From an uncultured Thermoplasmata archaeon (GTDB lineage: Archaea; Thermoplasmatota; Thermoplasmata; Lutacidiplasmatales; UBA184): a stretch of 64,000 nt of DNA. The notes below the pieces were generated by a model. The model ran no database searches, had not been told where the DNA came from, and was given only the letters and a program-made list of their open reading frames with translations. The stretch is from NCBI GenBank assembly GCA_963797975.1, contig CAWCRH010000006.1:347967-411966 (forward strand). The letters run 5' to 3'. A program made the translations under genes and the position numbers. This document shows positions 8,306-50,319 of the stretch, piece after piece; position 1 is the first letter of the stretch; every line of letters begins with the position of its first letter.

Positions 8306-9233
8306 GCTCACGATCCCGGCGGAAGAGTGGATGTATTCGGGGCACGCCGCGTGCCCGGGATGCGGCGCGGCTCTCTCCATGCGCCTCCTTCTGAAGGCGC
8401 TCGGGGCGAGAACGATCGTCTCGATCCCGGCCTGCTGCTGGACGGTGATCGCGACCCCGTACCCGACCACGGCGCTCGGTGTCTGCCTGATCGATAACCC
8501 GATCGAGGCGACCGGAGCGTCGATCTCCGGGCTTCGGGCCGCCGCCGACGCGCTCGGCCTGAAAGACATCACCGTCGTGGGATTCGCCGGCGACGGAGGC
8601 ACCGTGGACATCGGGCTCCAGGCCCTGAGCGGGATGCTCGAGCGAAGGACGGACGCGATCTACGTCATGTACGACAACGAGGCCTACATGAACACGGGCG
8701 TTCAGCGGAGCGGCGCGACCCCGATGGGGGCCTGGACGACCACGACGCCGGTCGTGAAACAGGCCCACGGCAAGACCGAGCCCAAGAAGGACATCATGGC
8801 CATCGTGCTCGGTCACCGGCCGGCGTATGCGGCGACGCTCAACCCAAGCTTCCCCGAGGATTTCGTGGCCAAGGCGGAGAAGGCGCGGGACATCCACGGC
8901 CCTCGGTTCCTCCACGTCTACGCCCCATGCCCTCCGGGGTGGCGCTACTCTTCGGAACAGACGATCCATCTGGGACGACTCGCCACCGACACCGGCGTCT
9001 TCCCTCTCTACGAGGTCGAGGACGGACACTACCGTATCACGCGTCAGATGGCGCACCTACGGCCCGTGGAAGAGTACATCAAGGCGCAGGGACGGTTCGC
9101 CCATCTTGACGCGGAAGAGATCGCGGCCAGCCAGGAACGGGTCACGGCGGGTTGGGAACGGCTGAAGGCCCGCGCGAAGGAATCGGCGACCCCGCCGCCC
9201 CCCGTCGCCCCCCTCGCGACCGCAGCCACGTAG
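8298..9233 (+). CDS. 2-oxoacid:ferredoxin oxidoreductase beta subunit (TPP-binding)
   Basis: MAKLTIPAEEWMYSGHAACPGCGAALSMRLLLKAL and GFAGDGGTVDIGLQALSG (TPP motif GDG). The start overlaps the alpha-subunit stop by 8 nt. Confidence 0.85.
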   Translation: MAKLTIPAEEWMYSGHAACPGCGAALSMRLLLKALGARTIVSIPACCWTVIATPYPTTALGVCLIDNPIEATGASISGLRAAADALGLKDITVVGFAGDGGTVDIGLQALSGMLERRTDAIYVMYDNEAYMNTGVQRSGATPMGAWTTTTPVVKQAHGKTEPKKDIMAIVLGHRPAYAATLNPSFPEDFVAKAEKARDIHGPRFLHVYAPCPPGWRYSSEQTIHLGRLATDTGVFPLYEVEDGHYRITRQMAHLRPVEEYIKAQGRFAHLDAEEIAASQERVTAGWERLKARAKESATPPPPVAPLATAAT

Positions 9234-9248
9234 GAGCGCGCGTGGTCC

Positions 9249-10881
9249 ATGAGACATCTCACGGACGTCGCGGCGTCGCTCGGTCTGACCCCGGAAGAGA
9301 TTGTTCCTTATGGCGCAGGGGTCGCGAAGATCCCAGCGTCCGTCGTTCACTCGCGGACCGGCTCTCCGCGCGCCAAGCTGATCCTGGTCACATCGATGAC
9401 CCCGACCGCGCACGGCGAGGGAAAGACCGTCACGGCGATCGGGACGGCGATGGCGCTCGTCCGCCAAGGATTCCGCGCGGTCCCCTGCCTCCGACAGCCT
9501 TCGTTCGGCCCGGTCTTCGGAGCCAAGGGAGGCGCCACGGGCGGTGGAAGAGCTACGGTCGAACCGAGCGCGGAGATCAACCTCGGCCTGACCGGCGACC
9601 TCTACGCCGTGGCGAGCGCGCAGAACCTGCTGGCATCGATGCTCGACAACCATCTTCACTACGGTAACCGCCTCGGGATTGACCCCGACCGAATCATCGT
9701 CCCTCGTACGATCGACCTGGACGACCGAGCCCTACGCCACGTTCGCGTGGGGCTCGGCGGCCACGGGAGTGGCCCCGAGCGGTCCGATGGGTTCGTGATC
9801 GCCGCCGCCTCCGAGGTCGCCGCGATCCACTGCCTCTCCCGTGACCTCGAGGACCTCACTCTCCGACTGAACCGCATGCTCGTGGGCTTCTCGCGGGACG
9901 GACGTCCGATCCGGGTCTCCGACCTCGGAGCCGGCGGTGCGATGGCGGCGATCCTGCGTCACGCGATGGAACCGAACCTGGTCCAGACCTCGGAAGGGAC
10001 ACCGGCGTTCGTGCACGCGGGCCCCTTCGCGAACCTGGGACCCGGGACGGCCAGCGTGATCTCAATCCGCCTGGCCCTCTCCCTCGCCGATTACGTGCTG
10101 GTCGAGGCCGGATTCGCCTCCGAACTCGGCGCCGAGAAGTTCGTCGACCTGGTCGGACCGGTCGGAGGGTTCCAACCGGTCGCTGCAATCGTCGTGGCCA
10201 CGGTCGCAGCCCTCCGCCATCACGGGCGGACCCTCTCTTCGGACCCCCCCGTCACCGGGCCGGACGCGATCCGGCGCGGGCTCGCCAACCTGGACCGCCA
10301 TCTGGCCAACGTGCACGCGCTGGGACTCGAACCGGTCGTCGCGGTGAACCAGCATCCCGAGGACACGCCCGAGGAGCTCGCGGTCCTTGAAGAGCACCTT
10401 CGCTCCCGCGCTCTTCGCTGGGCCCGCTCGACCGTGTACGCCGACGGCGGGGTGGGCGCCGACGCGGTCGCGACCGAAGTGCGTCAGCGTCGCAGCCCAA
10501 GGCCGGGTCGCTCGTCCGATCTTCGCGGCGGACCTACTCGTCACCGAGAAGCTTCGTGCCGTCGCCCGGACCCTCTACGGAGCCCGCGACGTGGTCGTGC
10601 TCCCGGACGCCATGAAGGACCTAGCTGCGCTCGAATCCGTGGGACTCGGCCGAAGCCCGCTCTGTGTTGCGAAGACGCCGCTCTCCCTGTCGGATGATGC
10701 GCACCTCCTGGGCGCGCCGCAAGGTTTCGATGTGAGCCTGCACACCTGGCACCCCTGGACGGGAGCGGGATTCGCGCTCGCATCGCTCGGCGAGATCCTG
10801 GCCATGCCGGGGCTTCCCGAGGACCCGGCCGCTCGGCATATCGGGGTGAACCTGCACGGAGAGGTCACCGGTCTCGTCTGA
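9249..10881 (+). pseudogene. fhs: Formate--tetrahydrofolate ligase, interrupted by a +1 frameshift near 10488-10492 as assembled
   Basis: The N-terminal 410 aa are typical FTHFS (LILVTSMTPTAHGEGKTVTAIG). The C-terminal conserved block EKLRAVARTLYGARDVVV...CVAKTPLSLSDD...MPGLPEDPAARHIGV lies in the +1 frame (track ORF 10387..10881). Confidence 0.85.
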
Positions 10882-10953
10882 CGCGCACCGCTCGGCGACG
10901 ATGGCCCGCCCCTACGGCACGCGCGGGCCGGGACCCATACGGCTTTCGCGCCG

Positions 10954-11523
10954 TCAGCCGGTCGAGCGCGGGCGGAGCCGGTCGGCGAACTTCTTTCGGA
11001 ACGCGGCCATCTTAGGAGCGATCACCAATTGGCAGTACCCGCGCTCGGGGTGGCGTTGGTAGTAGTTGCGGTGGTACTCCTCGGCCGGGTAGAAGACCGA
11101 GTACGGAACGATCTCGGTCACGATCTTCCGCCGCCACACCCGCTCGGCCCCCATCGCGTGGACGACCGTCTCCGCTTCCGAGCGCTGGCCCTCGTCGTGG
11201 TAGAAGATCGAAGAACGGTACTGCGTCCCCGCATCGTGGCCCTGTCGGTTGAGCGTGGTCGGGTCGTGGGTCGAGAAGAAGATGAGCAGCAGATCTCCGT
11301 AGCTCACGACCGTCGGGTCGAAGGCGATCTCGACCGCCTCGGCGTGGCCGGTCGTTCCCGTGCAGACCGCTTCGTACGATGGGTTCGCCACATGACCGCC
11401 GGTGTACCCCGGCGTCACTGAGCGGACGCCGTTCAGCTCGGAGAAGACCGCCTCGGTGCACCAAAAGCAACCTGCGGCGAACGTCGCGGCCCCCTTCGCG
11501 GACGGTCCCGTCGGATCGGCCAA
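10954..11523 (-). CDS. msrA: Peptide-methionine (S)-S-oxide reductase
   Basis: 189-aa ORF with the GCFWCTEAVF active-site motif and PGYTGGHVANPSYEAVCTGTTGHAEAV. Confidence 0.9.
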   Translation of the reverse strand: MADPTGPSAKGAATFAAGCFWCTEAVFSELNGVRSVTPGYTGGHVANPSYEAVCTGTTGHAEAVEIAFDPTVVSYGDLLLIFFSTHDPTTLNRQGHDAGTQYRSSIFYHDEGQRSEAETVVHAMGAERVWRRKIVTEIVPYSVFYPAEEYHRNYYQRHPERGYCQLVIAPKMAAFRKKFADRLRPRSTG

Positions 11524-11529
11524 TGTGGA

Positions 11530-12186
11530 TCACGCTCCGGCGTGGGCAACGGTCGTCACGTTCGCCTTCTCGAGAGGGACCCGCTCGTGGAGCGCTCCGA
11601 CCACATCGTGCAGTGTCGATTCGGGGAACAGGCCGCGTAAGTCGAGGGAGATCGAGTGGCGTCGCTCCCGGTGCAGGCGGCGGATGACGATGTCCGCGTG
11701 GAGGTTGCCGCGAGCTCCGAGCCGGAGCGAGAACGACCGGGCCTTGACGGCCTCCTTCCACGCTGGACTGTCCAGCGCTCGGAGGAACTGGCCGAGCGGC
11801 GTTTCCGACCCTGACCGACCTCCATCGGGCAGAGGGAGCCAGCCCCCCGGCTCGGCCTCCCAGTGAAAGACACGCAGGAAGCCGACCGAGCTGAACGCGT
11901 GCAGGACCGCCCCCGTGAGCTTGAGGAGGTCGGGGGCCTCCTCGATCTCCCGCTCGCGGAGCGCCTTCTCGATCCGCCGAAGGACGGGCGAGGTTCCCGC
12001 TGCGAGGGACTCGGGACGAAGGTCGATCTCGAGGTGGACGTGGGTGTACGGTCGTTGGCGGTGGCGACGGGTGGAGCGCGGTCCGGCCACCGGCCAGTTC
12101 AGGAAGGAGACCGGCCCGACCAGGTCCGGGGCCGAGGCACCGGTAGGAGGGAACGATGGGGGGCTCATGGAAGGGCCGATGCGCAC
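11530..12186 (-). CDS. Hypothetical protein
   Basis: 218-aa ORF sitting 6 nt upstream of msrA on the same strand. No family was recognised. Confidence 0.45.
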   Translation of the reverse strand: MRIGPSMSPPSFPPTGASAPDLVGPVSFLNWPVAGPRSTRRHRQRPYTHVHLEIDLRPESLAAGTSPVLRRIEKALREREIEEAPDLLKLTGAVLHAFSSVGFLRVFHWEAEPGGWLPLPDGGRSGSETPLGQFLRALDSPAWKEAVKARSFSLRLGARGNLHADIVIRRLHRERRHSISLDLRGLFPESTLHDVVGALHERVPLEKANVTTVAHAGA

Positions 12187-12217
12187 AACCCCATGAGGCT
12201 TTGCCGCGCGGGTCTCC

Positions 12218-13858
12218 TCAACTCGAGGCCGGGTCGAACAAGCGGTCGAAGAGACCGATCGGCGGACATCCGAAACCGAGCAGGGTGTCGTGGAAACCGC
12301 GCAACGAACCTCCGAACTTCGGCTGGAGGTAGCGCTTCCGGGCCTCGAGGATCGCGAGCTTGCCCAACGTGTAGCAGAAGTACTCGGGGTTGAAGGTCCC
12401 TCGGATCGCCTCGCGCTCCGCGGGGAGACGTTCGAAGTGGGCTTCGCGCTGGAAGAGCTGGGTCGCCTGCTCCACGGTCATCCCGCGGGTGTGCAGGCCG
12501 ATCGACGCGATCAGGCGGCAGTCCCGCAGCAGCGCGTCGTGGATCTGCGCCACCTCGGCCTCGACTCCGGGGGAACCGAACCCTTCCTCGATCACGAGCT
12601 GCTCGGCGTAGTGGGCCCATCCCTCGACGAAGGAGGGGGAGAGGTAGGCCTTGCGTGCGAGGGAGAGCGAGGCTGCTCGGAAATGCAGGAACTGCAGGTA
12701 GTGCCCGGGGTAGACCTCGTGGACGGTGATGTTCCCTAGCATCGTCCGGTTCAAGGAGCGCAGCCATTCCTCCTGCTGGTGCGGGCTCCACTGGGCATCG
12801 ACGGGCGTCACGTAGTAGATCCCTTCCCCGCTCGTCGTGTCGAAGGGGCCCGGGGAGTCCATGCTGGCGGTAGAGAGGGCTCGGCCCCACGCCGGCGTCT
12901 CCTCCACGCGGGTCTTTGCGTCGTGAGGAACGGTCGCGAGCCCGTGCTCTTCCACGAACCGCCGGGCCCCGTCCACGAGGGCGCGGGCCGAGGGGATGAG
13001 TGCGGAAGCGGAAGGGTGGTCCCGATAGAGACCTTCGAGAAGCCGGGGGATGGTGGCATGGGCCTCTCGCGCGATCTGCTCCAGCCGGCGTTGGTTCCGC
13101 TCGAGGTCGGCGCGTCCCGCTTTCTCAATCTCGTGGAAGGGACGCTCGAGTCCTTCCCGGACGAACAAGAGGCGCTGGAAGCGTTCGGGACCGAGGGCGA
13201 ACTCGTCGTTGGCGCGCGGCAGGTACTCGTCGCGGAGCGCCTGCAGGAAGTGGGAGAGCGCGGGCTCGGCGAGGTGGCGGGCGGCGGAGACCCGGTCGCC
13301 GAGCGCTCGGTCCGCGCGTCTCGCGAACTCTTCGGCTTCGGCAAAATGGGCGGGGAGGCCGGAGCCCATCGAGACCGCGAGCTGGAGGAAGGGCTTCGCG
13401 AGCACGGGCCTGAGCCGCCGAAGGCCCGCGTCCAGGTAGGCGGGGACCGCCTCCAGGATGGTTACGATCCCGCGGACACGCTCGGGAACGGGCGCGTAGT
13501 CTCGGGCGATGTACGATGTCAGCGACAGGGCGCCGAGGTAGGCCATCGGATTGCGGTCCAGGTCAGCGCTGTCCGCGAGGTCGAAACGGGCGCTCTCGAG
13601 CAGCAACCGCAGGAGGAAGAGGTCGATCTGACGGTCCGTCGGGACCTGGTCGCGAGCGATCGACGCGCGCTGGGCCTCGAGCGGCTGGGCTTCATCGAGC
13701 CAGCGGTCGGTCGATTCGCGGGCCACGAGGGGCAGCCGACCATCGTAGGCATGCAGCCCGAGGCTGACCGCGTAGTGGGGGTAGAGGACGAACATGTGCT
13801 CGACGATCTGCTGCTCGATCGCATCGATGGACCCCGCGTTCGAAGGAGAAGGCGTCAT
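12218..13858 (-). CDS. DUF885 family protein (putative metallopeptidase-like)
   Basis: 546-aa ORF. ITVHEVYPGHYLQF resembles the conserved HE..PGH..Q block of DUF885, and the length fits. Confidence 0.65.
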   Translation of the reverse strand: MTPSPSNAGSIDAIEQQIVEHMFVLYPHYAVSLGLHAYDGRLPLVARESTDRWLDEAQPLEAQRASIARDQVPTDRQIDLFLLRLLLESARFDLADSADLDRNPMAYLGALSLTSYIARDYAPVPERVRGIVTILEAVPAYLDAGLRRLRPVLAKPFLQLAVSMGSGLPAHFAEAEEFARRADRALGDRVSAARHLAEPALSHFLQALRDEYLPRANDEFALGPERFQRLLFVREGLERPFHEIEKAGRADLERNQRRLEQIAREAHATIPRLLEGLYRDHPSASALIPSARALVDGARRFVEEHGLATVPHDAKTRVEETPAWGRALSTASMDSPGPFDTTSGEGIYYVTPVDAQWSPHQQEEWLRSLNRTMLGNITVHEVYPGHYLQFLHFRAASLSLARKAYLSPSFVEGWAHYAEQLVIEEGFGSPGVEAEVAQIHDALLRDCRLIASIGLHTRGMTVEQATQLFQREAHFERLPAEREAIRGTFNPEYFCYTLGKLAILEARKRYLQPKFGGSLRGFHDTLLGFGCPPIGLFDRLFDPASS

Positions 13859-13949
13859 GGGCGATTCCCCCGACCTCCCCGCGCGGTCTAAAGGCTAGCG
13901 CGTAGCTCGGCGCGGCACCCTTTTTTGCTTGGGGCCATACCGTCGCTCG

Positions 13950-14411
13950 ATGGCGACACGGACGTCTCGGCTCGCCGAGCTCGGAATCGTTCTTCCCCCA
14001 CCTCCGCAGCCTCGAGGCACGTACGTTCCTGTGGTCGTCGCGGGCGGGATGGCCTGGGTCGCAGGGCAGATCACGCTCGACGAGCACGGGGTCGTTCAAC
14101 CTGGGTTGGTCGACCGGGACGTCTCCCTCCACGACGCCCAAGTGCTCGCGCGACGTGCGGCGCTCCAAGCCTTGAGCGCACTGAATGTGACCCTGCGCTC
14201 GCTCGACCGGATACGACGCGTGGTACGGGTCGCAGTCTACGTCGCGTCGTCCCCGGGCTTTGTCCACCAGCACGACGTTGGTAACGGGGCGACGGACCTC
14301 TTGGTCGAGATCTTCGGAGACGCGGGGCGACCGGCGCGGGTCTCGATGGGGGTTGCGAGCCTTCCGCTCAACGCTCCGGTGGAGGTTGAGGTCGCGGTCG
14401 CCATCGACTGA
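13950..14411 (+). CDS. RidA/YjgF/UK114 family protein
   Basis: LPPPPQPRGTYVPVVVAGGMAWVAGQ...RVVRVAVYVASSPGF...ARVSMGVASLPLNAPVEVEV fits the RidA-like fold pattern. An ATG at 13950 lies inside the TTG-started track ORF 13929. Confidence 0.7.
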   Translation: MATRTSRLAELGIVLPPPPQPRGTYVPVVVAGGMAWVAGQITLDEHGVVQPGLVDRDVSLHDAQVLARRAALQALSALNVTLRSLDRIRRVVRVAVYVASSPGFVHQHDVGNGATDLLVEIFGDAGRPARVSMGVASLPLNAPVEVEVAVAID

Positions 14412-14413: not shown

Positions 14414-15085
14414 GTGCGGAGCAACGTGGAGACGACGGGGTGGTCCGGGGTCCGCCGGGACGGACGTGACCTGTTCACGGCGAACGCTCGCCCCGGGGAG
14501 CGCGTGTACGGCGAGGTCGTGCGCACGATCGACGGGATCGAGTACCGTCACTGGGACCCGTTCCGTTCGAAGCTCGCGGCCTATCTTCTTCGGGCCGATC
14601 CCCCCACGGCACCGTGGTCTCCCGGAGGTTCGGTCCTCTACCTCGGAGGCGGGCACGGTACGACGGTGAGCCATATGTCGGACCTGGTCGGGTCCGGGGC
14701 CATCTTCGTCGTAGAGAAGAGCCCCACCGCGTTCGCCCCGCTCCTCGCCCTCGCTCGGAAACGGCCCAACCTGTTCCCGATCCTCGCCGACGCGCAGCTT
14801 CCCGAGCGCTACCAATCGGACGTCGGTCGGGTGGAGTTCATCTACCAGGACGTCGCCCAGCGCAACCAGGCGGGGATCTTCGTCGAGAACGTGCGGGCCT
14901 GCCTCGCTCCCGGAGGACAGGGCCTCCTCATGCTCAAGGTGCGGTCGGTGACGCAGCGGCGTCCGGCGAACGCGATCGTCCGGGAGGCTCGCAATGAGGT
15001 GGGACGGGCCGGCCTCACGGTCGCCGCAGAATGTTCCCTCTCGCCGTTCTCGAAAGAGCACGTCGCGCTCGCGGTCACGAGCTGA
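14414..15085 (+). CDS. flpA: Fibrillarin-like rRNA/tRNA 2'-O-methyltransferase
   Basis: GERVYGE...GIEYRHWDPFRSKLAAYLL...VLYLGGGHGTTVSHMSDLVG...FPILADAQLPERY...IYQDVAQRNQAGIF are classic archaeal fibrillarin blocks. Confidence 0.9.
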   Translation: MRSNVETTGWSGVRRDGRDLFTANARPGERVYGEVVRTIDGIEYRHWDPFRSKLAAYLLRADPPTAPWSPGGSVLYLGGGHGTTVSHMSDLVGSGAIFVVEKSPTAFAPLLALARKRPNLFPILADAQLPERYQSDVGRVEFIYQDVAQRNQAGIFVENVRACLAPGGQGLLMLKVRSVTQRRPANAIVREARNEVGRAGLTVAAECSLSPFSKEHVALAVTS

Positions 15086-15175
15086 CCCGCCCAACGGTCC
15101 TGAGCACCTTCCAGCATTCGCGACCTCGCAACGCCCCAAGTAGGCCGACCCGGGTCGGAGGGTCGGCGATGAGCT

Positions 15176-15487
15176 ATGGGTGGTGCGAGAGAACGAGGGG
15201 CTGCGGCCCGAAGGCGCGAGACGAGCGCGGGACGGAGAGCGACCCAGGCTATCTCCTGGAACTCGAAGAGGGAAGCGACCGATGTGCTACGACGGATCCT
15301 CGAGACGACCGGCTGGGTGGACCGCCCCGCGGTCGAGGTCCAGGCGGAGGGGTACGGCGTGTCGTGGCGCTCGGTGCGCCATGAGATCGACCGACTGATC
15401 CGAGCGGGCCGGATCCGCACGCGCACGCGGCCGGGCGGGTTCGAGCGGATCGCGTGGGTCCCCGCGTCCCAAGCCGAGGGACCATGA
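15176..15487 (+). CDS. Small winged-helix-like protein; first gene of the T4SS-like operon
   Basis: 103-aa ORF. The C-terminal 65 aa (VLRRILETTGWVDRP...WRSVRHEIDRLIRAGRIRTRTRPGG) look like a wHTH. Its stop overlaps the next start (ATGA at 15484-15487). The start codon is uncertain. Confidence 0.5.
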   Translation: MGGARERGAAARRRETSAGRRATQAISWNSKREATDVLRRILETTGWVDRPAVEVQAEGYGVSWRSVRHEIDRLIRAGRIRTRTRPGGFERIAWVPASQAEGP

Positions 15488-15879
15488 GGCGCGCGTTCGC
15501 TCACGTCGCCCTCGCCTTGCTCGTGGTGGGAATTCTCCTGGGGATTGGCGGCAGTTGGACGTCCTCCGCCCCGACCGGGCTGGCCGCGCATGCGGTGGGG
15601 CTGGCGGGAACGAACCCACCCGCGGCCTCCTCTTCGAACCCGGTGTCGAACTTCACGAGCTCGATCAATCGCCTGGTCGAGCTCGTCGCCGCCGCCGGCG
15701 GAGGGATCCTCGCGCTGGTCTGGGCGCGGGTCGCGATGAGCTGGTTCTCGAATGACATCACGAAGAAGGTCCAGGCGAAGGACCGGGCCCGTGACGCGCT
15801 CGTTGGGACCCTCGTCTTCACGGCGGCGATCACCGGGCTCGTCTGGGGTCTCGCTCAGTGGGTGTTGACCGGGGCATGA
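15484..15879 (+). CDS. VirB2/TrbC/CedA1-like pilin candidate (signal peptide plus two hydrophobic helices)
   Basis: MRRAFAHVALALLVVGILLGIGG is signal-like. Two hydrophobic helices follow: LVELVAAAGGGILALVWARVAM and LVGTLVFTAAITGLVWGLAQWVL. The size (131 aa) and topology fit T4SS pilins. The call is based on topology only. Confidence 0.55.
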   Translation: MRRAFAHVALALLVVGILLGIGGSWTSSAPTGLAAHAVGLAGTNPPAASSSNPVSNFTSSINRLVELVAAAGGGILALVWARVAMSWFSNDITKKVQAKDRARDALVGTLVFTAAITGLVWGLAQWVLTGA

Positions 15880-15891
15880 GGCGGGGCAACG

Positions 15892-17010
15892 ATGGACCTG
15901 GGCTCGATCGGATCGATCGTTCAGGCGATCCTCTTCGCCTTCTTCGCGCTTCTCACGGCCGCGCTGGCAGCGATCGTCGGACCGACCTACGACAACCTGG
16001 TCGTTCCCGAGTTGCAGACCGGCCAGCTTTTTCCCTCCCTCACGAGCGCGGCCGGAGGGGGACCCGGCTACCTGGTCCAGGCGTCCCACTTCAGCTCGTA
16101 CCTCTTGGTCTCGGTCGTCGACCCCCTGATCGCCCTGGTCGCAGTGGGATTGGGCCTCGTCTACCTCTCTCGAGCGCTCTGGTCACGCTCCGGCCCGTGG
16201 GCCGAGGGGCTGATCGCCCGATTCGTCATCGCGGTGGTCCTCGCGAACTTCGCGGTGCCCATCGCGGGAGGAATCCTCGGCGTGGCCGGCGCCGTCTATC
16301 CGGTGGTCGCCGGCTGGGACGGGGGTGCCTGGCAGCACTGGACGAACCTCGCCGGGTACGGAGAGTTCTCGCTCTCCTGGCAGAACGGGGCGCTCGCCTT
16401 CGTCCTCGCGTTCGTCGAGTTCTCGGTCGTGCTCCTGCTGGCCCTGATGATCGGGCTCCGGGACGCGACCCTCGCGGTGCTCCTGGTCCTTCTCCCGCTG
16501 TTCACGCTCGTCTGGCCGCTCAAGCCGCTCTCCCCGCTGGCCCGCAGGGGCTGGCTGCTCTTCGGGGAACTCGCCTTCTTGCCGTGCGTCCTGGTCGTCC
16601 CGCTCGAGCTCGCGGTGGGCAGCGCGAACGTCATCATGCTCATCGCCTACCTCTCGCTCGCGCTCGCCTCCCCGTTCCTCCTCTCGGTGGCCGGCACTCA
16701 CCTACCCTCGCTCGGCTTCCCGTCGGTGGGACCCGCTCTCACGGGAGGGGTGGAGCGGGGTCTGCTCGGAGCGTCGCGCTCCTCCAGCGCCACGTTCTCC
16801 GGGCTCGGCTCGGGCGGTGGGGGTGCCAGCGTCGCGGAGACGGCTGGCGGCCTCGCCCGCAACGCGGGGGCGGTCACGCTCCCGGCGTCGGCCCCGATGC
16901 TCGTCGCCGACGCGATCGGGCGCGGTGCCTCCCACCTGGCCCGTCACATCCGGGCCCCGAAGGAGGACCGACCCCGATTCGCGCCGGTCAAGCCCGGAGA
17001 AGGCGGCTGA
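15892..17010 (+). CDS. Polytopic membrane protein (in the VirB6/TrbL/CedA-like position)
   Basis: 372-aa ORF with at least 6 long hydrophobic segments followed by a Gly/Ser-rich tail. It lies between the pilin-like gene and the ATPase. Confidence 0.5.
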   Translation: MDLGSIGSIVQAILFAFFALLTAALAAIVGPTYDNLVVPELQTGQLFPSLTSAAGGGPGYLVQASHFSSYLLVSVVDPLIALVAVGLGLVYLSRALWSRSGPWAEGLIARFVIAVVLANFAVPIAGGILGVAGAVYPVVAGWDGGAWQHWTNLAGYGEFSLSWQNGALAFVLAFVEFSVVLLLALMIGLRDATLAVLLVLLPLFTLVWPLKPLSPLARRGWLLFGELAFLPCVLVVPLELAVGSANVIMLIAYLSLALASPFLLSVAGTHLPSLGFPSVGPALTGGVERGLLGASRSSSATFSGLGSGGGGASVAETAGGLARNAGAVTLPASAPMLVADAIGRGASHLARHIRAPKEDRPRFAPVKPGEGG

Positions 17011-17011
17011 G

Positions 17012-17795
17012 ATGTACGAGACCGCCGGACCCCCTCGGGTCGGCCTTCGCACGAGCGCAGAGCGTCGCCTTCGTTTCGGACCGTTCCCTTCCGTGGGCGA
17101 CGCCATGCGATTCGTCGGATACGCGGCTGTCGGAGCCCTGGTCATCCCCTGGCTGGGCACCCTCGCCTGGCTCCCGATCCTCGCCGCCGGCTTCGTTCTC
17201 GCGGTCTGGCAGCCGGGAGGCATCGCGCTGGACGCACGCCTCTTCGCCCACATCGCCTGGTGGGAGCGAGCGCTCCAGCCCTGGGAGGTGCGGATGAGTT
17301 CGCGGGGGCGCAGCGTTCACGGCGGGAAGGCACGCGTCGACCCCGGCTGTCTCGTAACGGTCCTTAAGTGCGGCGGCCGGCCGATCGCTTTCCTCCCACC
17401 GGAAGAGCTCCACCAAAAGTTCCGCCAGTACCCGTGAACTCCTCCGCTCGCTGGACGAGGGGATCGTCCTCGTCGGGGTCGGTCTCCCGGTCGACTCACG
17501 GCCATGGGTCCCGCCGGATCCGACCTCGGAAGGTCCGGACGGGATGGCGCGGGCGGGATACGCCGAGATGGTCGGCGTCCTTTGTCGCCACCGCCAAAGC
17601 CGCCGTGTCTACCTCCTCCAGTGGGCCCTCGAAGGAGAAGGGGACTCCTCGACGAAGCTCGAGGAGCGGACCGGGGCGCTCGCGGAGCGCCTGGAGGGAC
17701 TGGGCGTCTCGCCCGTACGGCTCGAGGGTGCTGCGTTGGGCGCCGCCCTCACCCGCTTCGGGTGGAACGAAGTAGGCACCGCGGAGGGTCGATGA
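17012..17795 (+). pseudogene. 2-TM membrane protein (VirB3/PrgI-like position) with a soluble C-terminal domain. It is split by a +1 frameshift at 17432 as assembled.
   Basis: The ORF from 17012 stops at TGA 17435-17437 right after CAGTACCCG. Skipping c17432 reads on without stops as ...HQKFRQYRELLRSLDEGIVLVGVGLPV... into track ORF 17544..17795. Its stop overlaps the next start (ATGA at 17792). Confidence 0.55.
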
Positions 17796-18154
17796 AGGGG
17801 GCGGGTCCCGCAACGGCGTTGGATGTCGATCCTTGCGGCCTCGCAATCCTCCTCGCCGTCGTGACCGGGCTCGCAGCGATCATCGACAGCGCGCTCGCGG
17901 CCCTTACCCTCGTCCTCGTCGCGCTCGGTCTAGGTGCGTTCATGATCGGCCTGCGTCCGCGTCACGCCGGTCGACTCGTGATCGACGCTCGGACCGTCGC
18001 CGCACTTTCGATGCTGGCGCTCGGGGTAGTGGCCTTCTTCTCGCTGCCCTCGAACGTCGCACCGTTGCGCGCGTTTCTCCTCGGAGTTTCCGCGACCCCG
18101 CTATGGTGGGCGCATCGAGCGCTCTCCCCGGGTCGGTTGGGAGGTCGGGCGTGA
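17792..18154 (+). CDS. Small membrane protein (3-4 TM) of the T4SS-like operon
   Basis: MKGAGPATALDVDPCGLAILLAVVTGLAAII... is a hydrophobic 120-aa product. It has an ATGA overlap upstream and a GTGA overlap with the ATPase start downstream. Confidence 0.5.
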   Translation: MKGAGPATALDVDPCGLAILLAVVTGLAAIIDSALAALTLVLVALGLGAFMIGLRPRHAGRLVIDARTVAALSMLALGVVAFFSLPSNVAPLRAFLLGVSATPLWWAHRALSPGRLGGRA

Positions 18155-19842
18155 GCGACATTCGCCTTCCCACGGTGGAAGGGCCGGGGTGGCTTAGGCT
18201 CCCACGACGTACCGTCGCCCCGGTGGTGCTCGCGGGCCTGCCTCCCGAGGTCGCCTTCGGTTTCCTCGGTCGGATCGCGCCGACCTCGGAGGCGACGACG
18301 TTCTACATCGAGGCCCACCCGATCTCCTCCCCGCACGCCCTCGAGATCCTGCACGGGGCGCGCGCGGTCGCACAGGTCGAGCTCGCCCGGGGCGGCGCGG
18401 ACGACGCACGGGCCGCGGAGCTCGAGGAGGAACGGACGGCAGCCGAAGAGCTGGGTCGCCAAGTGGCGTCCCGGGAGCAAGAGCTCTGGCGAGTCGGTCT
18501 TCGATTCGATGCTCACGGAGGTTCGCCGGCCGAAGCCGAACGGGCCCGAGGCGCCCTCGAGAATCGTCTGGCCGCTCTCGGGTTCCGTTCCCGGGTCCCT
18601 CGATACCAGGTCCGCATGGCTATCGACCCGCCGGACCTGGGTCAGCTTCACCCGCGACCGAAGGGATTCTACCACACGCTCTCCACCGACGGGGTCGCCG
18701 CGTTCTACCCGTTCATCGACGAGACGATCTTGGAGCGCGGAGGGACGCTCGTCGGCCTCGCCCTCGAGGACGCCGCGCCCATCTTCATCGACCGATGGGC
18801 GCACGGAAGTTACTCGTGGGGGATCTTCGGGGCGACGGGCAGCGGTAAGTCGTTCCTGGCGGCGCTCACGCTGCAGCGCACGGTTTGGCTAAAGCCCGAG
18901 ACGACCGTCATCGTCCTCGACCCGTTGGGAGAGTTCGGCGGCTGGGCCGAGGCGCTCGGTGGGAGCGTCCTCAGGCTGGACGGGACCCCCGGCCTTCGTC
19001 TCAACCCTCTCGACCCGGTCACCACGGGAGGGGATCGCCAGGAGAAGGCCGGTCGCGTCGCGGCGATGCTTCGAGCGCTCTTCCCGACGCTGCGGGACGA
19101 GGAAGCCGCGACCCTCGACGCGGCCGTGAGCCATCTCTACGACCAGGGGCCGGACGTACCGACCCTCTCCGATCTATCGGCGGAGATCGTTCGGCGAGGC
19201 GCGGATAGCGGCCGGCTCACGACCCTCCTCGAGGTTTTTCGCTCCGGCTCGCTCCGGTCGCTGGACGGTATGACCACGGTGGCGGAGTCGGCGAGCCCCG
19301 TCGTGGTCGACTTTCGAGGCGTTGCGGAGGACCATCTCCCGTTCCATCTCGCCTACGTGCTCGACTGGGCCTACGGGCGCCTCAAGGACCGACCGGGCCC
19401 GAAGCTCCTCGTCGTCGACGAAGCCCACCTGCTCGCGCGCCACGGGTCGACCAGTGAGTTCCTCGACCGGGTCGTCCGCCACGTTCGGCACTTTGAGGGA
19501 GGAGTTCTCCTGTTGAGCCAACACCCGAACGATTTCCTGCGACATGCCAGCGGACGGTCACTGCTGGGCAACCTGGCGGCCAACATTCTCCTTAGGCTTC
19601 CCCCTCCCGACGGGGAGTTGGCCTCCTTCTTCGGCCTTACGCGCTCGGAGGTCGAATGGATCCCTCGCGCTCGGCTGCCGCGCGAGGCCGGGTATAGCGA
19701 GGGCCTGCTGCGCATGGGCGAGCTCCACCTTCCTCTCGCGATCGTCGCCTCGACGCCCGAGTTCGAGTTCCTCACACGGCACATGGGTGGGACACGGTCG
19801 GATGGGAGGGCTTTGGGTGCGCCTCCAACACCAGGCTTATGA
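18151..19842 (+). CDS. VirB4/TrbE/CedB-family conjugation-type ATPase
   Basis: Walker A is GIFGATGSGKSF and Walker B is KLLVVDEAHLL. A VirB4-type N-domain is present (LAGLPPEVAFGFLGRI...ELWRVGLRFDAHG...RVPRYQVRMAI), and the C-terminus reads LLLSQHPNDF. The GTG start at 18151 overlaps the preceding stop. Confidence 0.8.
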   Translation: MSDIRLPTVEGPGWLRLPRRTVAPVVLAGLPPEVAFGFLGRIAPTSEATTFYIEAHPISSPHALEILHGARAVAQVELARGGADDARAAELEEERTAAEELGRQVASREQELWRVGLRFDAHGGSPAEAERARGALENRLAALGFRSRVPRYQVRMAIDPPDLGQLHPRPKGFYHTLSTDGVAAFYPFIDETILERGGTLVGLALEDAAPIFIDRWAHGSYSWGIFGATGSGKSFLAALTLQRTVWLKPETTVIVLDPLGEFGGWAEALGGSVLRLDGTPGLRLNPLDPVTTGGDRQEKAGRVAAMLRALFPTLRDEEAATLDAAVSHLYDQGPDVPTLSDLSAEIVRRGADSGRLTTLLEVFRSGSLRSLDGMTTVAESASPVVVDFRGVAEDHLPFHLAYVLDWAYGRLKDRPGPKLLVVDEAHLLARHGSTSEFLDRVVRHVRHFEGGVLLLSQHPNDFLRHASGRSLLGNLAANILLRLPPPDGELASFFGLTRSEVEWIPRARLPREAGYSEGLLRMGELHLPLAIVASTPEFEFLTRHMGGTRSDGRALGAPPTPGL

Positions 19843-19866
19843 ACGGCTCGCTGGGGTTTCCGAGCA

Positions 19867-20340
19867 ATGCCGGACGCGGACGAGGCGACGGCTCGTCGGC
19901 CGCCCAGACGCCGCGCCCCGTGGAGCCTCCGCTCGATCGTCATCGACGTTACGGGCAAGCCGATGTCCGAGTTCCAGGAGGTCGCCCCTCCTCGGCCTCG
20001 CCCTGCGATGGTTCACCCGCAGGTGGAGAGCCCAGAGGAGGACGCCATCGACCCGGTCGACCACTTCTATCCCCCGCTCTCCGGCCCGCGGGCCCGCGCA
20101 CTCCATGGGCTGAAGATGGAGCAGCACCCCGACACCCTGGTGCGGCACCATAGCGGTCCCGTCGGAACCGAGACGCTCCGCCCCTCTCCGTCACCGCATC
20201 CGGAGCGGATCTATCTCCACTACCTTCTCCTCCACCTGGACCGGCTGAGTCTCTCTTCGCTTTGGTATCTGAGACGCCAGGTCAACGACGAGATCGCCGG
20301 CCGCGCGCGCCCTCCGTCCTCGCCCCCTCCCGCGGAATGA
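19867..20340 (+). CDS. Hypothetical protein (Pro-rich; weak coding signal)
   Basis: 157-aa ORF immediately after the ATPase. Its 3' end overlaps the convergent methyltransferase by 59 nt. No family was recognised. Confidence 0.3.
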   Translation: MPDADEATARRPPRRRAPWSLRSIVIDVTGKPMSEFQEVAPPRPRPAMVHPQVESPEEDAIDPVDHFYPPLSGPRARALHGLKMEQHPDTLVRHHSGPVGTETLRPSPSPHPERIYLHYLLLHLDRLSLSSLWYLRRQVNDEIAGRARPPSSPPPAE

Positions 20341-21145
20341 GAGAGAGCGCCTGAGCTTGCTCCGCGAGCGCGCGGTAGACCTTCGGGTCCCGCTCGACCC
20401 CCACCGCGGAACGGCCGAGCCGTGCCGCTTCCCAAAGCGTCGTGCCGGTACCGGCGAACGGGTCGAGCACCGTGTCCCCGCGAACGCTGAACATGCGGAT
20501 CAGCCGCCGCGGGATCTCCGCCGGGAACGCGCCCGTCCTCGCTCCGTGGTGGCCTTGGCGTTGCCCCCGTACGTCGGTCCACACCTGGCTGAACCACGTG
20601 TCCCGCTCGGCTCGACTCAGCCGGCTCGCAGCGCGTTCGGGGTCGTGGGGAGGAAATCGACGAAGCGCTCCCTTACGGAAGAGCAAGATGAACTCGCAGT
20701 CCAGCGTGACGTAGGCGTTCGGCGGAAGGAACCCGGAGCCCAGGAACGCGTTCGGCTTGTTCGTCGGTTTCTTCCATAGGATGTAGGGGAGCGGCGTGAA
20801 CCCGCTTTGGACCGCGCGCCGCGAGACCTCGGCCTGGTTGGGCCACAGTTGAAAGCTCCCGTCGGTCGAGCGCAGCGCGTCGCCTACGTTGATCGCGAGG
20901 ATCCCCCCAGGAACGAGGACGCGGTAGGCGGCCGACCACGCCGACCCGAGCAGGTCGTGCATGCGGAGGAAATCGGTCGCGCCCTGCTCGCGGAAGGAGG
21001 CATCCCATTGCGCGATCATCGGGTACGGTGGCGACGTGACGATGAGGTGCACGCTCGCGTCAGCGATCGGCCTCAGCGTGCGCGCATCGGCCTTTAGGAC
21101 TCGTACGGGGGTTGAGGACAACGCGGGCACCGGGAATCGGGACAC
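20282..21145 (-). CDS. Orphan beta-class DNA methyltransferase (N4-cytosine or N6-adenine)
   Basis: Motif IV (LIVTSPPYP) is near the N-terminus and motif I (VLDPFAGTGTT) near the C-terminus, which is the beta-class order. No restriction endonuclease gene is adjacent. Confidence 0.8.
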   Translation of the reverse strand: MSRFPVPALSSTPVRVLKADARTLRPIADASVHLIVTSPPYPMIAQWDASFREQGATDFLRMHDLLGSAWSAAYRVLVPGGILAINVGDALRSTDGSFQLWPNQAEVSRRAVQSGFTPLPYILWKKPTNKPNAFLGSGFLPPNAYVTLDCEFILLFRKGALRRFPPHDPERAASRLSRAERDTWFSQVWTDVRGQRQGHHGARTGAFPAEIPRRLIRMFSVRGDTVLDPFAGTGTTLWEAARLGRSAVGVERDPKVYRALAEQAQALSLIPREGARTEGARGRRSRR

Positions 21146-41510: not shown

Positions 41511-41595
41511 GCGGGGATCGCCCAGCCTGGTCAAAGGCGCCAGATTCAGGGTCTGGTCTCGTAGGAGTTCGTGGGTTCAAATCCCTCTCCCCGCA
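41511..41595 (+). tRNA. tRNA-Leu (anticodon CAG), class II with a long variable arm
   Basis: Hand-folded. The acceptor stem pairs GCGGGGA with TCCCCGC. The anticodon stem pairs CCAGA with TCTGG, with loop TTCAGGG. The variable arm is TCTCGTAGGAGTTC. The T-arm is GTGGG-TTCAAAT-CCCTC with one U-U mismatch. Confidence 0.85.
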
Positions 41596-42398: not shown

Positions 42399-42593
42399 GG
42401 TCTATCAATCCGTTGGGTGATGTGGGATGGCTCTCGGTTCATATTGCACTTTGCGTCGACAGGTTCCCGATCGGGCGGAGGCACTCGGACGGGCGGGGCA
42501 AGCGGCCGCTCCGAGGGGAGGATGAACGACGCCCCCGCTCCGGGAACGCCGGCATCCATCTCAGTTTCCGCCCGACCGCCGCTCGGAACTCGC

Positions 42594-45919: not shown

Positions 45920-45941
45920 CACGAAGTGACATTACACGATT

Positions 45942-50284: not shown

Positions 50285-50319
50285 GACCGCGAATAAACAG
50301 GGCGCGATATAAAGCGATA

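Follow-up and report, generated by a model that had tools for sequence, protein, structure and literature searches.

A fixed, T4SS-like operon in the chromosomes of soil and peat Thermoplasmata probably serves DNA exchange

A chain of membrane-protein genes ending in a VirB4-like ATPase gene lies in a stretch of Thermoplasmata DNA of 64,000 nucleotides (the window). We asked whether this cluster is a conjugation-derived apparatus domesticated in a new lineage or what decay has left of an integrated conjugative element, the two options raised by a preliminary description of the sequence.

A seven-gene operon

We found seven closely spaced genes (g1-g7) on the same strand (+) at 15176-20340 of the window. 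Six genes had been named before and all are present; a seventh, g7, sits within the same span and had been missed. The start/stop overlaps described earlier are exact (ATGA at 15484 for g1/g2, ATGA at 17792 for g4/g5 and GTGA at 18151 for g5/g6), and the other gaps are 12 nt (g2-g3), 1 nt (g3-g4) and 24 nt (g6-g7). As had been noted, the composition is that of the flanks, with a GC of 0.69-0.71 in the operon vs 0.67-0.69 outside it. Transmembrane (TM) topologies of g2-g7 were taken from hydropathy and AF2, which give no TM segments for g6 and g7. The features are:

15111..15175, +, upstream region (alignment of 42 upstream regions)
15176..15487, +, g1, 103-aa soluble winged-helix-like protein (tblastn homology, weak Pfam matches)
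15484..15879, +, g2, 131-aa pilin-like protein (alignments A2 and A4, AF2 model, sub-threshold Pfam T4SS_pilin)
15892..17010, +, g3, 372-aa polytopic membrane protein (family matches of distant relatives, Foldseek on a low-confidence model)
17012..17795, +, g4, 260 aa after removing one C of CCC at 17431-17433 (orthologue alignment A6, member-wise scans)
17792..18154, +, g5, 120-aa 3-TM protein (ATGA/GTGA overlaps on both sides, hydropathy and AF2)
18151..19842, +, g6, 563-aa VirB4-clade ATPase of the short type (NCBIfam, PDB and plasmid matches)
19867..20340, +, g7, 157-aa soluble protein, last gene of the operon (conserved directly after VirB4)
20282..21145, -, orphan N6/N4 DNA methyltransferase (Pfam N6_N4_Mtase, 2.9e-34)

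In the upstream region, a TATA-like AAGTA at 15138-15142 matches a conserved RAAATA box, which relatives carry roughly 35 nt ahead of their first start codon; farther 5', the alignment of the 42 regions shows a TTCCAYC-like motif. Conservation of RNA structure was checked in the relatives' upstream regions and none was found. The 14-bp palindrome at 15145-15158, singled out earlier, is present but carries little meaning: the window holds 13 such palindromes vs about 10 expected by chance, and this one is not kept in the relatives' upstream regions.

The operon is fixed at one chromosomal site

Scanning genome contigs matched 123 species, from which 80 loci were kept. All lie in Thermoplasmata MAGs, including one labelled Ca. 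Lutacidiplasmatales; the organism of the window is itself a Thermoplasmata archaeon and, as suspected, not crenarchaeal. By tblastn mapping, the order fibrillarin, surface protein (where present), g2-g7, methylase and HPS-RraA is common to about 80 species-level MAGs. All seven genes occur in 45 of the 51 loci with enough flank, three others lack only the surface protein, and the ORFs are intact across loci. The operon genes are under purifying selection, with dN/dS values of 0.09-0.30 (g6 0.09, g3 0.11, g4 0.17, g7 0.18, g2 0.20, g5 0.23) that are comparable to those of the flanking housekeeping genes (fibrillarin 0.11, YjgF 0.13). Synteny had been proposed as the check that separates domestication from a mobile element, and the shared site in about 80 species, with no att-like repeats around it, points to domestication. 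Recent independent insertions as the source of the conserved loci were considered and are excluded by the shared flanks.

The reported lack of mobility genes holds up: in the near-identical contig and in relatives alike, the surrounding 10 kb or so holds no gene for a relaxase, a coupling ATPase, an integrase or replication. A coupling ATPase or relaxase could be encoded farther away in the genome. Neither a VirB4 paralogue nor a homologue of the 1311-aa 'conjugal transfer protein' of a haloarchaeal plasmid occurs in the 64-kb window or the loci, and a search of viral contigs found nothing.

The split of g4 by a frameshift, described earlier, is present in the assembly and results from an extra C in the CCC run (window TACCCGTGAA vs TACCGTGAA in L088), which is missing from L088, a 99.84% identical and independent contig. 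Hence, the frameshift is almost certainly an assembly error and not a real mutation. With one C deleted, g4 is intact and collinear with 63 orthologues (alignment A6). L088 has its own homopolymer indel, at 17344, and 52 gap openings separate L087 from the window over 20 kb; the assemblies of L087, L088 and the window are indel-rich long-read assemblies.

These results bear on whether the locus is a dead remnant of an integrated conjugative element. The assembled frameshift, the truncated first gene g1 and the absence of integrase, relaxase and T4CP would fit decay, but the indel is almost certainly an artefact, about 80 species share the same locus and gene order with intact ORFs, dN/dS is low throughout, att repeats are absent and GC equals that of the flanks. 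Hence, synteny and selection refute this reading, to which we give next to no weight.

g6 is a VirB4-clade ATPase

Both ATPase motifs reported for g6, Walker A (GATGSGKS) and Walker B (LLVVDEAH), were found. The best NCBIfam matches are conju_CD1110 (6e-35), VirB4_plasma (1e-23), VirB4_CagE (4e-17) and TraC (1.5e-14); non-VirB4 models are weaker (CedD 8.5e-8, with 31 bits against a cut-off of 600, and HerA 6e-6). Against the PDB, g6 matches the VirB4 structure 4AG5 at 5.6e-13 as a single sequence and at 2.5e-26 as a profile, and HerA-like structures at 3.5e-8 or weaker. The VirB4-type assignment, tested against HerA/FtsK, thus stands: VirB4 models and the VirB4 crystal structure are ahead of HerA by at least 18 orders of magnitude. 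On sequence grounds, the identity of g6 as a true VirB4-clade ATPase, not HerA/FtsK, is solid. Its N-terminal region is about 250 residues shorter than in the 800-aa bacterial VirB4 proteins.

Candidate pilin, channel and platform proteins

The pilin-type topology noted for g2 is borne out by hydropathy and AF2, with a signal/TM helix at 4-22 and two hydrophobic helices. Orthologue alignments A2 and A4 divide g2 into a variable leader of about 50 aa that holds the signal/TM helix and a strongly conserved domain of about 78 aa, in which two hydrophobic helices are separated by a basic loop (KK..K.R.R) and an N-F-T/S sequon is invariant. The AF2 model (pLDDT 72) has helices at 3-25, 53-92 and 99-129. 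Pfam T4SS_pilin (PF18895) is matched below threshold by 13 of 33 g2 orthologues (best E 0.0027), and an out-of-clade homologue, L089, matches the g2 HMM at 2e-24 and PF18895 with 24.6 bits vs a cut-off of 26.6. The PDB yielded no match to g2, neither by sequence nor by Foldseek on the AF2 model. This weak but convergent evidence suggests that g2 is a VirB2-like pilin.

As described before, g3 is polytopic, with at least 6 TM segments (hydropathy, AF2); its tail is rich in Ser, Gly and Ala. Direct searches of Pfam, NCBIfam and the PDB gave no match. Of 1.84 billion proteins searched with the family profile, 64 matched at E<=1e-3. Among 40 distant relatives scanned, Pfam TrbL is matched by 5 (best 5.3e-8), TrbL_4 by 1 and the NCBIfam CD3337/EF1877 mobilome membrane protein by 2. 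With a poor model of g3 (pLDDT 56), Foldseek placed R388 TrwI/VirB6 chains at the top (E 0.19, prob 0.85) and in 5 of the top 10 matches. These signals, weak but convergent, point to a VirB6/TrbL-like channel subunit.

g4 has a 2-TM hairpin (residues 34-65) of PrgI/VirB3-like form and a cytoplasmic domain of about 150 aa. In member-wise scans, 17 of 40 g4 proteins match NCBIfam SCO6880_fam (best 6.7e-6), 8 of 40 match Pfam PrgI (best 0.008) and 4 of 40 match TraC_F_IV (best 0.049), weak but convergent evidence that g4 is PrgI/VirB3-like. For the window's own g2, g3 and g4 proteins, the pilin, VirB6 and VirB3 matches are all below curated thresholds. The VirB3-like role had earlier been given to g5, but the PrgI/SCO6880 signals belong to the 2-TM g4 instead. 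g5 lies between g4 and g6 in 70 loci (113-131 aa), conserved in position and weakly in sequence, and matches no Pfam or NCBIfam family.

g1, previously described as a small wHTH protein, is indeed winged-helix-like but is a homologue of the cytoplasmic C-terminal tail of a surface protein: by tblastn it matches the 3' end of the gene for this protein in 49 loci at 35-48% identity. The full protein (about 740 aa) is membrane-anchored with Ig/PKD repeats, and in most relatives its gene lies ahead of that for the pilin. In the window's lineage the ectodomain is missing and the wHTH tail (g1) stands free; the gene is reduced to the tail in L081 and missing in L008 and L010. Pfam matches are weak (GntR 0.055 for g1; Rrf2 0.0018, DUF5817_CT 1.6e-4 and PKD 1.2e-6 for the surface protein).

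The nearest relatives are plasmid modules

Searching plasmids with g6 matched 980 records, 533 of them conjugative. As judged from sequence matches, the nearest relatives of the operon are monoderm/archaeal plasmid modules of the MPF-FATA type, such as CD1112 VirB6/PrgI/CD1110 VirB4 or the module with the haloarchaeal plasmid 'transfer complex protein', which give the best matches to g6 and share the order small 2-helix protein, polytopic protein, PrgI-like protein, VirB4. A Haloprofundus plasmid has the order pilin, polytopic protein, 2-TM protein, VirB4, as do the distant relatives L089 and L090 (in L090 together with ParA, MazE and AbiEii, an MGE-like setting) and a Streptococcus suis plasmid (CD1112 VirB6, PrgI, CD1110 VirB4). 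The short VirB4 architecture of g6 is also found in Bacillales megaplasmids and haloarchaeal plasmids. Unlike the Thermoplasmata operon, which is chromosomal, at a fixed locus and clade-wide, these modules belong to plasmids or ICEs and have VirD4-like coupling proteins, hydrolases and relaxases in their vicinity, genes that the operon lacks.

The shared gene order also weighs against a chance association of a HerA/FtsK-type ATPase with unrelated membrane proteins. The top Pfam match of g6 is DUF87 (the HerA central domain) and g3, g5 and g7 have no direct family matches, but the lead of VirB4 over HerA is large, and the T4SS_pilin, PrgI/SCO6880, TrbL and CD3337 signals agree with the VirB6 Foldseek top matches. 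We therefore consider a cluster unrelated to T4SS extremely improbable.

Comparison with known chromosomal systems

Ced and Ted, both domesticated T4SS, take up DNA (PMC9905601). Ted (TedA/TedB/TedC, Thermoproteales; Beltran et al. 2023, PMC9905601) resembles the Thermoplasmata operon in being chromosomal and without relaxase, and in having a true VirB4-clade ATPase, a VirB6-like polytopic protein and a VirB2-like pilin, TedC, with a cleavable N-terminal signal sequence. However, Ted belongs to another phylum, whereas the Thermoplasmata host is a mesophilic soil organism; HerA, ParA and Rad50 accompany Ted loci and none of them is in the Thermoplasmata locus; and the latter adds g4, whose cytoplasmic domain is long, as well as g5, g7 and the surface/wHTH protein, with every gene in one tight operon. 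By sequence, g2 does not detectably resemble the TedC pilin, whose structure is solved.

Ced (Sulfolobales/Desulfurococcales; CedA, CedA1, CedA2 and CedB, plus CedD and CedE) is likewise a chromosomal minimal T4SS derivative without relaxase, made of a pilin, a polytopic channel protein, small membrane proteins and an FtsK/HerA-superfamily ATPase. Its ATPases, CedB and CedD, fall into clades of their own, and their VirB4-like N-terminal domains are split (PMC11868833), whereas g6 is in the VirB4 clade, and Ced pilins are exported without processing (PMC9905601), in contrast to g2 with its leader of about 50 aa. None of the operon components is related at the sequence level to Ced proteins or to a conjugative pilin of solved structure. 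The label 'Ced/Ted-like' therefore fits in architecture and evolutionary status, but not as sequence-level orthology to Ced components or to the solved Ced/Ted pilins.

The T4SS of Patescibacteria (PMC12102498) is also MPF-FATA-derived, chromosomal and nearly universal in its clade, with a PF18895-type VirB2-like pilin, PrgI, VirB6 and VirB4 and with the relaxase mostly missing; its function is thought to be co-opted (PMC12102498). It differs in being bacterial, in epibiotic ultrasmall cells whose epibiotic growth requires it (PMC12102498), and in having variable component sets and arrangements vs one invariant operon in free-living archaea.

Within Thermoplasmata, the T4SS components of Cuniculiplasma (arCOG05340, arCOG04034 VirB4, arCOG05369; PMC5155288) are of the same class. 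Compared by its published description, this chromosomal cluster also combines VirB4, a multipass protein and other membrane proteins, and it likely belongs to the same superfamily of modules; PMC5155288 gives it a one-sentence annotation, without analysis of pilin, origin, conservation or function. In another relative, L092, a g3-like protein, a 244-aa protein and VirB4 lie beside archaeal housekeeping genes.

Cuniculiplasma (Thermoplasmatales) is also reported to have a VirD4/TraG-family ATPase, arCOG04816, at a separate locus (PMC5155288), and a large conjugal transfer protein adjoins VirB4 in plasmid relatives. Both would suit a mating-pair-formation half of a still conjugative donor/export system, with coupling and DNA processing encoded elsewhere and Hfr-like chromosomal transfer rather than Ced-like import. 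However, a gene of this kind is absent from the window and, to a distance of about 10 kb, from all of the roughly 80 loci, and we consider this arrangement improbable.

A candidate machine for DNA exchange

We favor, as reasonably probable, a fixed, vertically inherited minimal T4SS-like machine that arose from an MPF-FATA core in soil/peat Thermoplasmata (high-GC, Lutacidiplasmatales-like) and probably serves DNA exchange within a species. The conserved site, purifying selection and VirB4-clade ATPase agree with the earlier suggestion of a domesticated apparatus in a new lineage, which would likely be the third conjugation apparatus to have been 'domesticated' independently in archaea, following Ced and Ted.

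In such a machine, the long leader would direct the export of g2, which after processing would polymerise into a VirB2-like pilus, probably together with membrane lipid, and g3 (VirB6-like), g4 (PrgI/VirB3-like) and g5 would form the membrane platform and channel. A g6 hexamer docked on g4 would power both the extraction of pilin and the translocation of substrate. In species that have it, the Ig-repeat surface protein would make cell contact, and its wHTH tail, which in the window is g1 on its own, may act as a regulator of the operon. By analogy with Ced/Ted, which are likewise chromosomal and have neither a relaxase nor a dedicated coupling protein in the locus, the pilus is probably for cell-to-cell DNA exchange, and the likeliest substrate would be chromosomal DNA passed between cells of one species for recombination. 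The host is mesophilic; hence, the Ced/Ted rationale of repair in extreme heat is not directly transferable.

A domesticated T4SS-like machine could instead act as an adhesive or biofilm pilus, deliver proteins or effectors on contact or mediate symbiont/host interaction, as has been suggested for the T4SS that Patescibacteria carry on the chromosome without a relaxase (PMC12102498). That precedent has the same PF18895-type pilin and PrgI (PMC12102498), the locus lacks a relaxase, a coupling protein and any DNA-processing gene, and the first gene of the operon in most species encodes the large Ig/PKD-repeat surface protein, which fits adhesion or contact. Nevertheless, several lineages, the window's among them, do without this protein, the operon has no conserved effector-like or toxin/immunity genes as neighbors, and Ced, the sole experimentally characterised archaeal chromosomal T4SS derivative, moves DNA (PMC9905601). 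We regard a non-DNA role as possible but rather unlikely.

g7 and the neighboring methyltransferase

g7 adjoins the VirB4 gene in 74 loci and has three conserved motifs (RRRxSWSLKxIVEDVxGRPI, DPVxxxYPPL..GR..HG and PERLYLHYLLLHxDRL); it has no match in Pfam or NCBIfam. The methyltransferase gene is convergent with g7 and overlaps its 3' end by 59 nt. Reported earlier as lying just downstream, it is a conserved neighbor in essentially all loci (60-73% identity, tblastn) and may be part of the operon system. In some relatives, a HEPN/MNT pair sits between g7 and the methyltransferase.

The operon has seven genes, with g4 regarded as intact

The window is ~68% GC and consists of archaeal chromosomal DNA. 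The operon and its immediate neighbours are laid out as follows:

14414-15085: fibrillarin, left neighbour of the operon
15176-15487, + strand: g1, winged-helix (wHTH) protein
15484-15879, + strand: g2, pilin-like protein
15892-17010, + strand: g3, polytopic membrane protein
17012-17795, + strand: g4, 2-TM protein
17792-18154, + strand: g5, 3-TM protein
18151-19842, + strand: g6, VirB4-clade ATPase
19867-20340, + strand: g7, soluble protein
20282-21145, convergent to g7: orphan N6/N4 DNA methylase, right neighbour of the operon

A preliminary description, made from the sequence alone, had chained six of these genes by start/stop overlaps. The ATGA overlaps at 15484 and 17792 and the GTGA overlap at 18151 are exactly where it placed them, but the count is seven, because g7 lies within its coordinates for the operon, was left unlisted and is conserved in relatives. 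The 3' ends of g7 and the methylase overlap by 59 nt (20282-20340), comparable to the 88 nt in the related locus L001. In one subclade (L004-L006, L011 and L012), a HEPN/MNT (nucleotidyltransferase) toxin-antitoxin pair sits between these two genes (~12360-13170), and in three species (L025, L045 and L048) an insertion of ~1.2 kb separates the VirB4 gene from g7 (~11650-12950). Rfam found nothing but tRNA in the window.

The g4 reading frame is disrupted at 17431-17433 by one surplus C; the window reads TACCCGTGAA at this position, whereas the closest g4 orthologues and contig L088, which is 99.84% identical to the window, read TACCGTGAA. Deleting one C gives a g4 of 260 aa that is collinear with 63 orthologues. 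Hence, g4 is to be regarded as intact. L088 has its own homopolymer indel at 17344, 87 nt upstream of the one in the g4 of the window, and L087, a second near-identical contig, shows 52 gap openings in 20 kb relative to the window and has many split genes; these contigs are indel-rich long-read assemblies. L088 differs from the window at 16886-16893, 17344, 17431 and 19752-19754, and its variant at 19752 yields a fused VirB4 ORF of 653 aa. Since the near-identical contigs of other assemblies depart from the window almost exclusively by short insertions and deletions, several of which fall in homopolymer runs, further apparent frameshifts in the window may likewise be assembly artefacts.

The operon is fixed at one chromosomal site and is under selection

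We found more than 500 relatives of g6 at 56-85% identity, all of ~560 aa, and every named one comes from a 'Thermoplasmata archaeon' MAG. Scanning one genome per GTDB species with alignment-based patterns matched 123 species (single-sequence patterns gave no match in the same scan), and the 80 loci retained are from Thermoplasmata MAGs of soil, peat and freshwater, one of them labelled Ca. Lutacidiplasmatales. Published Lutacidiplasmatales genomes are ~2.1 Mb with ~69% GC, which fits the window, and secretion, conjugation and pili are absent from the paper that describes them (PMC9287336).

All loci with enough flanking sequence share one gene order: DUF885 (- strand), YjgF, fibrillarin, a ~740-aa surface protein (where present), g2 to g7, methylase (- strand) and HPS-RraA. 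The full seven-gene set occurs in 45 of the 51 species loci with adequate flanks, and only the first gene is missing in three. Pairwise dN/dS within a ten-species subclade was 0.09 for g6, 0.11 for g3, 0.17 for g4, 0.18 for g7, 0.20 for g2, 0.23 for g5 and 0.30 for the surface protein; for the flanking genes it was 0.11 (fibrillarin), 0.13 (YjgF) and 0.06 (HPS-RraA).

In agreement with the preliminary description, no relaxase, coupling ATPase (VirD4/TraG), integrase or replication gene was found within ~10 kb, and the same holds for the near-identical contig and the relatives. That contig was recovered through its identical pilin sequence; the exact VirB4 sequence of the window gave no contig. 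Searching by tblastn with the 1311-aa 'conjugal transfer protein' of a Haloprofundus plasmid and with VirB4 found nothing further in the window or in the 86 related loci L001-L086. A coupling ATPase may be encoded elsewhere in the genome, as reported for Cuniculiplasma (PMC5155288).

As an alternative to a domesticated apparatus, the cluster had been proposed to be the decayed core of an integrated conjugative element (ICE), with the g4 frameshift as a sign of decay and synteny as the check. We found the locus at one chromosomal site with the same flanks in ~80 species, neither patchiness nor att-like direct repeats flanking the operon, and, as noted earlier for composition, an operon GC equal to that of its flanks; the surplus C is absent from L088. 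The ICE reading is also disfavoured by the tRNA-Glu at 22558, which lies past the next housekeeping gene, beyond conserved genes, and by the lack of relatives among viral contigs. Hence, synteny, purifying dN/dS and the absence of mobility genes within ~10 kb rule out an ICE fragment or decaying remnant, and this T4SS-derived operon with a VirB4 motor is chromosomal, inherited vertically, functional and under selection.

Elsewhere in the window, a stretch after tRNA-Leu (41511-51600) has a lower GC of 0.59-0.63 and encodes a CBS protein, a nitroreductase, YdjM, a ZnuABC-type transporter and FAD oxidoreductases. Its genes at 43-51 kb are ordinary metabolic and transport genes, with no mobile-element genes among them.

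g6 belongs to the VirB4 clade

In NCBIfam, the matches of g6 to conju_CD1110 (6e-35), VirB4_plasma, VirB4_CagE (4e-17) and TraC were far stronger than those to CedD (8.5e-8; 31 bits, where the cut-off is 600) and HerA (6e-6). Similarly, the g6 family profile matched Thermoanaerobacter VirB4 (4AG5) in the PDB at 2.5e-26, with HerA-like helicases at 3.5e-8 or weaker. By tblastn, g6 matched 980 plasmids, 533 of them typed as conjugative; the best were haloarchaeal plasmids and elements of Firmicutes and Actinobacteria. By these profile and plasmid matches, g6 is a VirB4-clade ATPase, as first proposed, and the HerA/FtsK alternative is not borne out.

g2, g3 and g4 weakly resemble a pilin, VirB6 and VirB3

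Scanned directly against Pfam and NCBIfam, g2, g3, g5 and g7 yielded no usable match, and the family profiles of g2, g3 and g4 had zero matches to PDB sequences at E<=10. The solved CedA1 and TedC pilins are presumed to be in that set; the A. pernix CedA1 pilus and TedC structures were determined by Beltran et al. (PMC9905601). Foldseek with the AF2 model of g2 gave no meaningful match, which is unsurprising given that the protein is a short hairpin of helices behind a floppy leader. Hence, the suggested comparison of g2 with solved pilins, presumably including TedC, detected no similarity by sequence or by Foldseek.

The layout of g2 is that of a VirB2/TrbC-type pilin: a long leader, two hydrophobic helices, a basic loop and a mature domain of ~70-80 aa. 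Its variable leader of ~50 aa (signal/TM helix) is followed by a 78-aa domain with ~80% identity across the clade, and this domain is a hydrophobic helix pair with a short basic loop, so that the signal peptide and two helices seen in the preliminary description are supported by the alignment of orthologues, AF2 secondary structure and hydropathy. An Asn-Phe-Thr/Ser sequon at the start of the conserved domain (15649-15657, residues 56-58) is invariant in g2 and all orthologues and could be an N-glycosylation site or a marker of the leader-cleavage region. Pfam T4SS_pilin (PF18895) was found below threshold in 13 of 33 g2 orthologues (best E 0.0027) and CagC in one; g2 of the window had no match to PF18895. 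The g2 homologue of L089, an AT-rich locus outside the clade, matches the g2 HMM at 2e-24 and PF18895 at 24.6 bits (E 2.8e-5, cut-off 26.6).

The g3 profile found 64 proteins at E<=1e-3 among 1.84 billion. Among 40 distant relatives of g3, five matched Pfam TrbL (best 5.3e-8), one TrbL_4 and two the CD3337/EF1877 'mobilome membrane protein' family. Foldseek with the low-confidence AF2 model of g3 (pLDDT 56) placed R388 TrwI/VirB6 at ranks 1, 2, 3, 5 and 10, with E of 0.19-2.2 and prob <=0.85. A PF19590 TrbL_3 label carried by ten g3 relatives in precomputed tables was unmatched on rescan and was therefore discarded.

Matches among 40 g4 orthologues were to SCO6880_fam (17, best 6.7e-6), PrgI (8, best 0.008) and TraC_F_IV (4), those to PrgI and SCO6880_fam being below curated cut-offs, and the 2-TM topology of g4 and its position beside VirB4 suit PrgI/VirB3. 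Hence, the putative VirB3 equivalent is g4, and not the 120-aa g5. Searches of Pfam and NCBIfam detected no relatives of g5 or g7 beyond the operon family. The pilin, VirB6-like and VirB3-like identities are each weak alone and become coherent when combined with gene order.

Relatives outside the clade hint at a split VirB4

Four comparable modules are:

L090 (GCA_027081835.1, JALWJG010000201.1), 8179-14084, 41% GC: nearest out-of-clade relative of the module
L092, 44% GC: g3-like protein, 244-aa protein and VirB4, among archaeal housekeeping genes
Haloprofundus plasmid: 110-aa two-helix protein, 577-aa polytopic protein, 349-aa 2-TM protein, VirB4, then the 1311-aa 'conjugal transfer protein'
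Streptococcus suis plasmid: VirD4, SSB, Maff2, CD1112 VirB6, PrgI, CD1110 VirB4

L090 encodes, in order, a protein of 605 aa that is weakly pilin-like over its final ~60 residues, a g3-like protein, a g4-like protein (2e-7), a 140-aa membrane protein and the nearest outgroup VirB4 (291 bits). Its neighbours (ParA, MazE, AbiEii, MarR and PD-(D/E)XK genes) form a mobile-element-like setting, and its module could be a mobile ancestor-like form. Hence, by gene arrangement, the window operon corresponds to an MPF-FATA-type element reduced to its mating-pair-formation core, with the DNA-processing and coupling genes missing.

Short VirB4 proteins (560-640 aa), g6 among them, lack ~250 N-terminal residues of an 800-aa VirB4 and are preceded by an extra domain or protein, here the C-terminal domain of g4 and in Bacillales megaplasmids proteins of 270-330 aa. 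In megaplasmids L097, L098 and L100, a PrgI-like protein and such an unannotated protein come before a VirB4 of 620-645 aa. Using hhalign, we found P 5.7e-4 (prob 30%) for the g4 C-terminal domain against the Bacillales proteins and no significant match for g4 against the N-termini of long VirB4. The arrangement may point to repeated splitting of the N-terminal region of VirB4. A split VirB4 like that described for CedB/CedD (PMC11868833) is possible in the window operon, with the g4 C-terminal domain as a candidate for the missing piece.

The first gene is truncated in the window

In most species, the first gene encodes the ~740-aa surface protein (L015:5028-7289 and equivalents). Its N-terminal signal/TM helix precedes Ig/PKD-like repeats with many N-x-S/T glycosylation sequons, which are followed by a C-terminal TM helix and a cytoplasmic winged-helix-like tail of ~70 aa. 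g1 of the window is homologous to this tail only; the ectodomain is missing in the window and L081, and the whole large gene in L008 and L010. Since the surface-protein genes of relatives begin, in the alignment, at the window ATG at 15167, which is out of frame with g1 (start 15176), a ~2-kb internal deletion in the first gene of the window lineage is suggested.

Upstream, the alignment of 42 loci contains conserved TTCCAYC at ~-62, a TATA-like RAAATA at ~-35 and a GGTGG Shine-Dalgarno-like element, which would fit an archaeal promoter of the operon's own, distinct from that of fibrillarin. The window keeps the RAAATA-type box and TTCCAYC (15111-15142). The 14-bp palindrome reported upstream of g1 is present between the TATA-like box and the start codon; as a regulatory site it was rejected, with such palindromes at chance frequency (13 observed, ~10 expected), no conservation and no consensus structure.

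The operon is comparable to Ced and Ted, and is assigned to neither

Like conjugative T4SS of the MPF-FATA class, the window operon has a VirB4-family ATPase; unlike them, it lacks a coupling protein and relaxase at its loci (within ~10 kb) and is fixed between the same flanks in ~80 species rather than carried by mobile elements. Ced has CedB/CedD-type ATPases with split VirB4-like N-terminal domains, whereas the window operon has a single VirB4-clade ATPase, and g2, g3 and g5 had no NCBIfam match to CedA, CedA1 or CedA2. Hence, with a different ATPase clade and no orthologues, it is not a Ced member. The predicted architecture of the window operon matches that of Ted, with a chromosomal VirB4 (TedB), a VirB6-like TedA and a signal-peptide VirB2-like pilin (TedC). 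However, Ted occurs in Thermoproteales with HerA, ParA/MinD and Rad50, whereas the window operon is flanked by fibrillarin, YjgF, DUF885, methylase and HPS-RraA in a Thermoplasmata host. Given the other phylum, other accessory genes and no detectable pilin similarity, it is not to be called Ted. The initial Ced/Ted-like proposal stands for architecture and evolutionary status only, in which the operon resembles both.

In the literature searched, we found no description of this system; the sole precedent was a single sentence that annotates 'type IV secretion components' in Cuniculiplasma, of the Thermoplasmatales (PMC5155288), and the archaeal section of a 2025 T4SS review covers Sulfolobales plasmids and Thermococcus pT33-3 only. 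Conjugation machinery domesticated for cellular DNA exchange is described only for Ced and Ted of hyperthermophilic Thermoproteota, where it was explained as an adaptive response to the DNA damage of extremely hot habitats (PMC9905601).

The proposed machine would consist of a VirB2-like pilus built from g2 and a membrane platform made of g3, g4 and g5. By analogy with Ced and Ted, it probably serves the exchange or import of chromosomal DNA (PMC9905601). It may instead act in adhesion, contact or another process that does not involve DNA, for which a T4SS of Patescibacteria is a precedent (PMC12102498). A combined reading that extends the DNA-transfer role, and that we consider tentative and rather doubtful as a whole, is that mesophilic soil Thermoplasmata have an independently domesticated apparatus for pilus-dependent chromosomal DNA exchange or import, the first outside Thermoproteota, with two innovations specific to the lineage: the cytoplasmic wHTH tail of the membrane-anchored Ig-repeat surface protein would couple cell contact to operon control and the VirB3-like protein would supply the missing N-terminal piece of the short VirB4, analogous to CedB/CedD.

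The candidate third system would be MPF-FATA-derived, unrelated to Ced and Ted in sequence and fixed across an abundant uncultured order of mesophilic soil and peat archaea; it would mean that archaeal chromosomes captured T4SS recurrently and not in connection with hyperthermophily. If true, soil Thermoplasmata would have a concrete candidate for the mechanism behind their horizontal gene flow and recombination, and the seven genes would be a compact set to reconstruct in a heterologous host and to study by cryo-EM. The taming of the machine could then be followed along a natural series, which comprises L090 as a mobile-element-like relative, the modules on plasmids and the operon fixed in the chromosome.
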